Assembly (NCBI RefSeq): GCF_028641065.1
Contig: NC_073385.1
Span: 46,934,001 to 46,998,000 of the forward strand
DNA: 64,000 bases
Direction: 5' to 3'
Source: Leucoraja erinacea
Taxonomy: Eukaryota
Shown here: positions 10,407 to 12,133 of the stretch, piece after piece
Numbering within the stretch: position 1 is the first letter of the stretch
How the letters are laid out: each line of letters starts with the position of its first letter
Notes under the pieces: generated by a model
Databases searched by the model: none
What the model saw: the letters and a program-made list of their open reading frames with translations, nothing else
Told to the model about the DNA's origin: nothing
Position numbers and translations under genes: made by a program

Positions 10407-12133
10407 AAGGGCTGTCTCATGTTGCGAGTTGACACAAGAGGTACCCCGAGTTCAAACTCGTGGTAAAAACATACGATTAACGTAGCTGTAACGTCGGAAC
10501 TCGTGGAGGCAACTTAGAGACTCGTGGCGCTAACAGCAGGTACCCGTGAAACCTGTCAACTCTTGAAAAAAATCAAACATGTTTAAAGTTTTCCACGAGT
10601 CAAATTTACTCTTGTGGTTAAGAATTGAAACATTTTAACTCGTTGTAAGAACGTAGTGGCCCGTGCGTTTACCTTAGTGTATCGTGAGTCTACCGTGGGA
10701 ACTCTTTAACTCAGCGGGCAGTCAGCAGTTGATTGTCGCTCCCTTCACTTTCCCAGGGGGTCAGGACGGGACTGGAGTTGGGTGGGAAAGGTGGGGGGGG
10801 GGGGGGGGGGCGAGAGAGAGGGTGGAGAATCGGGGGAGACAGATGGGGGTGTCTTCATTTACTGGCGGAGGGTGCCTGTCACTGAAACAAGCAGGTGAGA
10901 TTTCACATCCACCGTGCCCGCTGACTCCCATCCCCCCTCCCTGTCCTGGGCTCTCCCCCAGAGTGGCCCCGAACCGGGGGGAAAGTCAGCGGGCACGTCA
11001 GCTCTTGACTATTTTCTGCATTTCATCGTAAAATGTTCCTGTTATTAAAAAATAGTAATGTCTATCCTGTCATAAGTAATGTGTGAGCCTGCAGCCCTTC
11101 ACCTCCACCCCCCTCCCCTCAGTCCGACACCGAGATCCTGCTGAAGATGGGCAGCTGCCGGCTGGATGAAGTGGCAGCGGGTACCGTAGGGGCAGAAGCT
11201 GATGGTGTGCAAGGTACATCTTGTTTTTGGGGTGGCGGATGAGGGGGCGCAGCTCGGACTGTGGGCGAACTGCCACTTGTCGCCGTAGCGGCCCATCTGG
11301 GTTCCTCTGGAGTTAGAGCGGGGCTGGGCTGGAGTTGCTGCTGGCTGTGGGTCTCTGGGTTCTCCGTGCTTGCAGTGGGCCTGGTGGGCCTGGGGTTCGG
11401 TGTCCCGTTGGTCCTGACGTCTACGGCCACCCCCCTGGACGGGTTGAGACTGGGAACTGTACCGGCCTTGCCCCCTCCCTCTGCAACTGCAAACAACCCC
11501 ACTCTCCTGCTCACCTAACCCACCCATCCCTCCCAACTCCACCCCCCCCCACCTATCCCTTCCAACTCCAGTGCCGTCCCGACCCCCTGGGAAACTGAAG
11601 GGAGCGACTGCCCGGGGGCGACTGGCACTGACCTGCTGGCATCGCCGACGTGAAGACAGTGCAAAACCCCCGCGCCCGGTGCAATGGGCGGGGTCACACA
11701 CATGGCCGGCAAGCAGAGAGGTGTAGGTGGGGGTGGCGACAGACAGGGCCAACAATGAGTGGAGAAAGACAGAAACACCGATGTGCAAAGGAGACCTACA
11801 ACAGTGCATGATCTCTCTCGCGTTATGGCAGGTGATTGTCGCCTGCCCACTGTTCCTGACGCTAAAACCTTGGGATCGTTGCCCTTCGTGTTGGCCTGGA
11901 GGGGGAAGGGGGGTATTGTGCTATTTGATCGCCCCCTGCTATCCCAGGGACAGGGAGACACAGCGGCTTTTGAGACTGGTGGGCAATCACTTCCAAAGTG
12001 TCTGCCCACCCAGTCAGTACACCTCTCCTACACTTGTCTCCCGCACTAAGATCATCCCGCAGAGAATGATCCTAGCCTAACCCAAGAGCCTTGTCACCGC
12101 AGACAGATGAATGACTCCCGTGAGCCAGCCCTT
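10407..12133. mobile_element. Non-autonomous DNA transposon, PIF/Harbinger-like, inserted in CR1
   Basis: TIRs aagggctgtctca (10407-10419) and tgagccagccctt (12121-12133), 12/13 match; flanked by tta and tga (3-bp TNA target); removing it rejoins the CR1 reading. Confidence 0.7.
11164..11320 (-). pseudogene. Degenerate ZFP36/TIS11-family tandem CCCH zinc-finger fragment inside the Harbinger-like element
   Basis: Across frameshifts it reads RYGDKWQFAH / ELRPLIRHPKNK / CTLHTISFCPYGTRCHFIQ, versus family consensus KYGDKCQFAHG..[35 protein letters not shown]. Confidence 0.85.

Follow-up and report, generated by a model that had tools for sequence, protein, structure and literature searches.

TIR transposons that capture genes and then amplify them on a large scale are a hallmark of plants. 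Among animals, a survey of Pack-TIR elements in 100 genomes lists, in its available sections, only four multicopy cases, with three copies in the example given, and models the multicopy cases as uptake by template switching on DNA (PMC8277862). The 21 PIF-Harbinger rows in Data 1 of that survey are divided between X. laevis (3), alligator (14) and X. tropicalis (4); within the accessible contents of its 12 supplements neither skate nor ZFP36 appears, and elephant shark has 0 entries. The nearest match in scale is gene capture by bat Helitrons, which proceeds by another mechanism: these vertebrate DNA transposons, such as HelibatN3/NUBPL, have carried host gene pieces, including nested retrogenes, to about a thousand copies, and they are rolling-circle elements with neither TIR nor duplication (PMC4224331). 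According to the available part of that study, high-copy Helitron cargo is mostly promoter or 5' exon sequence, internal or last-exon cargo being present in 28-1,381 copies. PIF/Harbinger elements are recognized by a 3-bp TTA/TAA duplication and short TIRs (PMC2213677, PMC9179366); in the published fish comparison, as far as its accessible text goes, elephant shark is without Harbinger, and other cartilaginous fish stand outside that comparison (PMC9179366). Our literature search returned no account of ZFP36 together with a transposon, skate, shark or Harbinger, and the skate papers listed contain, at record level, 0 mentions of ZFP36 and Harbinger; a consensus may already exist in Repbase or Dfam.

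Here we describe a 1.7-kb element found in a 64-kb window, the whole stretch of Leucoraja erinacea DNA that was analysed. Taking the DNA-capture and retrocopy routes together, it is very likely a high-copy Pack element; our more specific reading, that it is a non-autonomous, PIF/Harbinger-like skate Pack element present in high copy number, is probable. As in the animal Pack-TIRs, a TIR element holds host sequence inside, and the cargo is GC-rich, as favoured in multicopy cases; unlike in those elements, the skate cargo is coding, and its depth in three organisms is like that of a LINE (PMC8277862). With plant Pack-MULEs and PIF/Harbinger deletion derivatives it shares the 3-bp TTA/TAA-type duplication, short TIRs and internal deletions and inversions, but it differs from the plant PIF/Harbinger derivatives in its vertebrate host, its 13-bp TIR and its right duplication TGA (PMC2213677). 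Vertebrate Pack-Harbingers are already known, and a high-copy coding ZFP36 cargo in skates is an unusually successful case. A family of this kind, its coding cargo repeated hundreds to thousands of times, would be to vertebrates what a successful Pack-MULE is to plants; the element also points to Harbinger-like activity in skates.

Ends of the element and its target site

The element is bounded by 13-bp terminal inverted repeats, the left at 10407-10419 (plus strand) and the right at 12121-12133 (minus strand), which are identical at 12 of 13 bases when inverted and are not extendable. At fixed ends such a match has a chance of ~6e-7, and when up to 2 mismatches are allowed the TIR has only 3 matches in the 64-kb window, two of them being the element's own ends. 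A self-search of the window revealed no second copy. The element interrupts a decayed LINE, which we take, as did the preliminary description, to be of CR1 type. Its RT region on the left (10012-10406, plus strand) ends in the frame KFADYTKV, has consensus-like loose ends and is covered at very high depth in relatives; on the right the same frame resumes with SGFTDSEG (12137-12600, plus strand), and one contig record (X1 record 8) begins at 12136.

Between the LINE and the TIRs lie, on the plus strand, TTA on the left (10404-10406) and TGA on the right (12134-12136, placed by the CR1 frame); they agree at 2 of 3 bases, so that the duplication is imperfect and departs from TWA. Excising 10407-12136, which joins the flanks and drops one trinucleotide, restores the frame KFADYTKV-SGFTDSEG. 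An unsplit CR1 contig of a relative passes from 10406 directly into the letters of 12137 onward, and an empty CR1 joint connects 10406 to 12158. We conclude from the restored frame and the empty contig joint that the duplication is 3 bp long. A Kolobok- or piggyBac-type TTAA duplication was rejected, since a 4-bp model breaks the CR1 frame. These observations bear out the initial account of a 1.7-kb element with 13-bp TIRs and a tta/tga target splitting a CR1.

The length of the duplication and its left TTA copy agree with a PIF/Harbinger element, the right copy being TGA. The 13-bp TIR is one base under the shorter of the ranges quoted for autonomous elements, 14-25 bp in plants (PMC2213677) and 25-50 bp in fish (PMC9179366). 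A search of the element itself found no DDE transposase or Myb/SANT ORF. Judged by its end structure the element appears PIF/Harbinger-like, and its transposase would presumably belong to that superfamily; the earlier label 'Harbinger-like' is kept as a statement about end structure.

The captured ZFP36 piece and its donor

Inside the element, the minus strand carries four blocks that are collinear with skate ZFP36. These are the end of CCCH finger 1 (11261-11296; 9/10 identical), in which the third Cys is read as Trp; the inter-finger linker in a different frame (11217-11258; 9/12); a remnant of finger 2 that has lost its first Cys (11165-11215; 14/17; zf-CCCH at 14.7 bits, below the cut-off of 20.5); and the C-terminal motif RQLPIFSRISVSD with a stop codon (11163-11119), which agrees with three skate ZFP36 proteins in 12/13 residues and in the position of the stop. 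We take this motif to be CNOT1-binding. Together the blocks are identical to skate ZFP36 at 44/52 residues. They were retained because they recurred with several proteins; in other respects the upstream blocks that the frameshift aligner returned did not agree with one another, and with 3 of 6 proteins it failed to pick up the tail. The finger remnant matches the ZFP36L2 fingers of 1rgo (phmmer, E 4.1e-8), and its three blocks in two frames confirm the frameshifted TIS11/ZFP36 tandem CCCH remnant reported before; the C-terminal motif with its stop is new, and so are two further features, an inner inverted repeat of 70 bp and the hairpin at 10909-11001.

The capture thus extends from mid-finger 1 to the ZFP36 stop codon, with the finger 2 remnant fused directly onto the C-terminal motif at 11164 and the ~110 codons between them deleted. 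In contrast to the host gene, the piece is without the N-terminal 40%, has both fingers broken and is spread over three frames. The preliminary description had also recognized a ZFP36L N-terminus in STENPETHSQQQLQ, further upstream. This reading did not survive a shuffle test: for 7/7 ZFP36-family N-termini, 20-198 of 200 shuffles scored as well, and the QQQ stretch was rejected as donor sequence, its resemblance being due to chance.

The best protein matches of the captured piece are skate proteins ending in ISVSD; the skate TTP-type ZFP36 proteins compared were XP_078287002.1, XP_032870229.1 and XP_055519735.1. Shark ZFP36 proteins have one extra residue at the tail relative to both the skate proteins and the captured tail. 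A ZFP36L1/L2 donor is less likely: a fish L1-type protein (P0008) reaches 41/52 against 44/52 for skate ZFP36 and has a different tail, in a comparison made without skate L1/L2 proteins. Host-gene sequence therefore lies between the TIRs, with a parent identifiable at the protein level that appears to be skate TTP-type ZFP36. Of the 'ZFP36-family fragment' first proposed, the family stands, and the donor is narrowed to TTP-type ZFP36 rather than ZFP36L1/L2.

In a functional TIS11/ZFP36 protein both C-x8-C-x5-C-x3-H fingers are intact and share the frame of the tail. The captured piece has Cys losses in both fingers, two frameshifts, a tail frame without ATG and a Pfam score below the cut-off. 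No protein function is plausible for it, and the cargo is dead as protein. Searches for protein products of other copies in the tail frame found 0 among 2,349 candidates, and a search of short candidates found 0 among 183. Flanking repeats of the window at 10127-10357 and 14970-15350 have unusually many small indels, reflecting fast decay or assembly error, and this excess may inflate the apparent erosion of the piece.

A HMMER scan of representatives gave 6 matches, one of which is XP_055493223.1 (P0044), annotated as 'ZFP36-like' in Leucoraja erinacea and located on an 88-Mb contig, the host ZFP36 being on a 12.4-Mb contig. Its middle corresponds to the +1 frame of host ZFP36 at 51/58 positions (score 88, versus at most 28 in 60 shuffles). 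It is a frameshifted ZFP36 copy that is less deleted than the window piece and has one intact finger. The two share three changes from the host: a non-host M-G junction at the start (M-G-R-Y, where the host has F-C-R-Y), L in place of F in finger 2, and Q in place of R in the tail. The R to Q change, seen in P0044 when its tail is read in the +1 frame, is a CpG change that can recur. P0044 is probably a member or forerunner of the element family. It reads E-L-C-R where three skate host genes read E-P-C-R, a one-residue hint that this copy may predate the split of the three skate hosts. In little skate the family probably accounts for one or more spurious gene models called 'ZFP36-like', and caution is needed with ZFP36 reads, which may be mis-mapped, and with contigs, which may be chimeric. 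A separate Logan contig of 1,385 nt (P0036) encodes a 180-aa protein that begins M-G-C-Y and from there on resembles the host; the contig may be either chimeric or from a captured copy that is nearly intact.

How the piece entered the element is a separate question from how it spread. The same amplified family could have received its cargo as a 5'-truncated ZFP36 mRNA retrocopy, made by CR1/L2 enzymes before amplification, as in bat Helitrons. The piece begins abruptly in mid-finger and reaches the 3' end, as 5'-truncated retrocopies do, and it presumably lies inside one ZFP36 coding exon, which leaves no intron to separate a DNA from an RNA origin. Because the piece spans no intron, DNA template switching and a truncated retrocopy are indistinguishable in this respect. 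LINEs are plentiful in the window, and amplification of nested retrogenes is documented in the available part of the bat study (PMC4224331). The hallmarks of a processed pseudogene, a poly(A) tail and its own direct repeats, were not found: downstream of the ZFP36 stop there is no poly(A) (A6), AATAAA or ATTTA in 10860-11121, and the repeat lists contain no direct repeats flanking the piece itself, although later deletions could have erased such traces. On balance we regard the retrocopy route as unlikely, and favour uptake at the DNA level.

Copies and rearrangements in related organisms

Four of the 24 listed runs, none of them from organism C, were aligned to 10050-12350 at 80% likeness. 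They comprise contigs of three organisms (runs X1, X2 and X5, of 1.7-2.9 billion letters, a size for which we treat them as genomes) together with organism D's raw poly(A) reads. In the search that gave the listed runs, four related organisms hold 26-39% of the element's words, and no RNA set is among the listed holders. All listed runs hold less than half of these words, so that likely none comes from the window's own species. The individual records discussed below are 24 of ~76,800 aligned pieces, 15 of 160 joints and 24 of 2,152 loose ends. Exact motif scans of metagenome contigs, viral contigs and prokaryote genomes gave 0 loci, which is uninformative as these collections are poor in fish DNA.

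The ZFP36 finger block is highly repeated in all three contig runs. Its bin (11205-11281) has a summed depth of 6.9e5 in X1, 1.2e6 in X2 and 1.9e5 in X5, equal to 1.25, 1.77 and 0.41 times that of the CR1 flank, and at three listed sites (11218-11258) the majority letter is carried by 39-101 contigs each. With this depth a single host gene is insufficient. Summed depth is not a copy number; when the median depth of the 8 records listed for each run serves as divisor, copy ceilings of 5,000-23,000 result, and an overlap of up to 31-fold lowers these to floors of 160-750, which places the finger block at roughly hundreds to 10^4 copies. The two arms are also multicopy, each with a summed depth of 3e4-7e5 in the three runs: the left arm (10420-10752), on which a 139-nt contig has a depth of 1860, and the right arm (11897-12120). 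The finger bin is 1.1-2.5 times as deep as the right arm and 2.9-7.2 times as deep as the left arm, and other carriers of the block could explain the latter excess. An AT-rich segment after the ZFP36 stop (10974-11118, minus strand), possibly a 3' UTR remnant, is far rarer than the finger block and has the lowest internal depth (4e2-1e4).

The repeated modules are joined to one another in rearranged order. A joint from 11184/11185 to 11301 on opposite strands, and one from 11421-11426 to 11620 that skips the sequence between, were each found in 3/3 contig runs and in RNA; a third, from 10752 to 11732 on opposite strands, was found in 1/3 contig runs and in RNA, and another run has its mirror (11732 to 11591). 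The link from the finger block to the right arm is a loose end at 11946, which bears the motif that borders the block. The modules at 11301-11732, whose likeness to ZFP36 is not significant, are thus rearranged between subfamilies. From joints on separate short contigs we infer a form of ~1 kb consisting of the left arm, an inverted 11732..11301, the finger block cut at CPYG and the right arm. The fusion of finger 2 and tail at 11164 is bridged by two contigs of two organisms (records 4 and 21), ~10% diverged with 12-15 differences; the deletion of ~110 codons is therefore common to these organisms, a longer collinear form existing elsewhere. A 792-nt contig (X2 record 9) fits only from 10412 and is preceded by 657 foreign letters, marking the left end at another locus. 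Among the listed records there was no right end at a foreign locus and no full second copy with both ends, and no single record spans the element. All modules and the cargo are nevertheless repeated and joined pairwise, with one foreign left flank, on short separate contigs; we infer that the repeated blocks lie between these TIRs genome-wide.

These data leave little room for a one-off processed pseudogene or a gap-filling capture confined to this single copy. In the available text of the survey, animal Pack-TIRs as a rule reflect gap filling in a single copy (PMC8277862), and the window itself holds just one copy. Dozens of contigs and a CR1-level depth on the block in 3/3 genome-sized runs, a fusion junction common to two organisms and a sister copy on another chromosome nevertheless bring this explanation close to refutation, and we consider it barely credible. 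For the same reasons the case first named as fatal to a spreading family, a processed pseudogene inserted later with its own TSD or poly(A), finds neither feature here and is contradicted by the repetition in relatives, while the proposal of a family spreading a ZFP36 fragment gains from the joints to both arms.

The block could alternatively belong to some other repeat, of long-inverted-repeat or rolling-circle type, nested in an ordinary Harbinger-like MITE. An inner inverted repeat does surround the ZFP36 piece: its left arm (10735-10804, plus strand, 70 nt) is 90% complementary to the right arm (11539-11608, minus strand) and decays inward to ~10860, for a length of about 70-125 bp, and the finger bin is 3-7 times as deep as the element's left arm. 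However, no direct repeat occurs outside the inner arms, other copies keep the ZFP36 block even though the right inner arm is skipped, and joints connect the block's neighbours to both outer arms. Nesting of this kind is improbable.

We therefore return to an amplified Pack element, for which we propose the following origin. The 3' part of skate ZFP36, from mid-finger 1 to the stop, would have been taken up once, in a skate ancestor, by a non-autonomous TIR element, whose copies, multiplied by a transposase supplied in trans, would then have reached the hundreds or thousands. Internal deletions and inversions would have given rise to subfamilies, some keeping only the ~115-bp finger block in flipped orientation. 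The copy in the window, in which the collinear order with the C-terminal motif is kept, would have inserted into an old CR1 within a host intron, at a TTA/TGA site. Most likely the cargo is a neutral internal passenger. The dated series of host gene, near-complete 3' copy, fused copy and flipped finger block offers a test of capture models.

Folding, transcripts and genomic neighbourhood

The inner inverted repeat is predicted to form an RNA stem on the minus strand (z -5.7 vs 20 shuffles), and in the host pre-mRNA of this copy its two arms would pair as a long stem enclosing the ZFP36 piece. A GC-rich hairpin lies 3' of the ZFP36 stop (10909-11001, minus strand; -61.2 kcal/mol, z -5.0, 0/200 shuffles). 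Its depth differs ~400-fold between runs X1 and X2, and it is possibly a nested or subfamily-specific module. In Rfam no hairpin match came near threshold; two miRNA models at E ~0.2, far below the gathering score, were rejected.

Of the 7.3 million poly(A) reads of organism D, 1,819 aligned, on both strands, with 6 reads across the element joint 11184/11301 and 4 across 11426/11620. Conceivably the cargo is retained because it is functional, either tuning ZFP36 through RNA that is antisense or double-stranded, or letting the element borrow the host gene's low silencing; the occurrence of the block in both orientations among copies, the reads on both strands with element-specific joints and the predicted stem would all suit this. 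Yet read depth on the element is 2-40 against 20-330 on the CR1 flank, as for passive intronic repeats, and frameshifts, deletions and a 10-25% residue change have eroded the piece. We consider retention for function very doubtful. The reads fit passive read-through, and no function follows from them. It is equally far-fetched, on present evidence, that thousands of copies of the coding sequence for the ZFP36 RNA-binding domain, lying in either orientation and in part within long inverted repeats, are transcribed with the introns and UTRs around them and so give rise to RNA, double-stranded or antisense, that acts on ZFP36-family mRNAs; if true, the transposon family would be a lineage-specific regulator of ARE-mediated mRNA decay.

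The intron that holds the element separates two exon-like frames on the minus strand, one at 14069-14269 (Gly/Arg-rich, from ATG to a GT donor) and one at 6387-6551 (an open 55-aa frame between AG and GT), which we take to be exons 1 and 2 of AVEN; the placement in an AVEN intron given earlier fits these frames. Near this host gene lies a 7TM receptor ORF (Pfam 7tm_1; 27465-29018, plus strand), presumably CHRM5. Together with an exon resembling a fibrinogen domain (35885-36622, minus strand) and what we take to be an EMC7-like first exon (~62900-63300, minus strand), it matches the neighbourhood expected for AVEN.

Other repeats in the window include a GC-rich array of 19/37/75-bp tandem units within overlapping open frames (18692-19035) and, on the minus strand, a fragmented ORF2 at 24079-26308 that we take to be from an L1/Tx1-type LINE. 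A decayed retroelement, presumably a Gypsy-type LTR element, has gag-, protease-, RT- and integrase-like frames (46000-50300, minus strand). At 51900-54150 a long element contains arrays of 30-, 37/51- and 29-bp tandem units.
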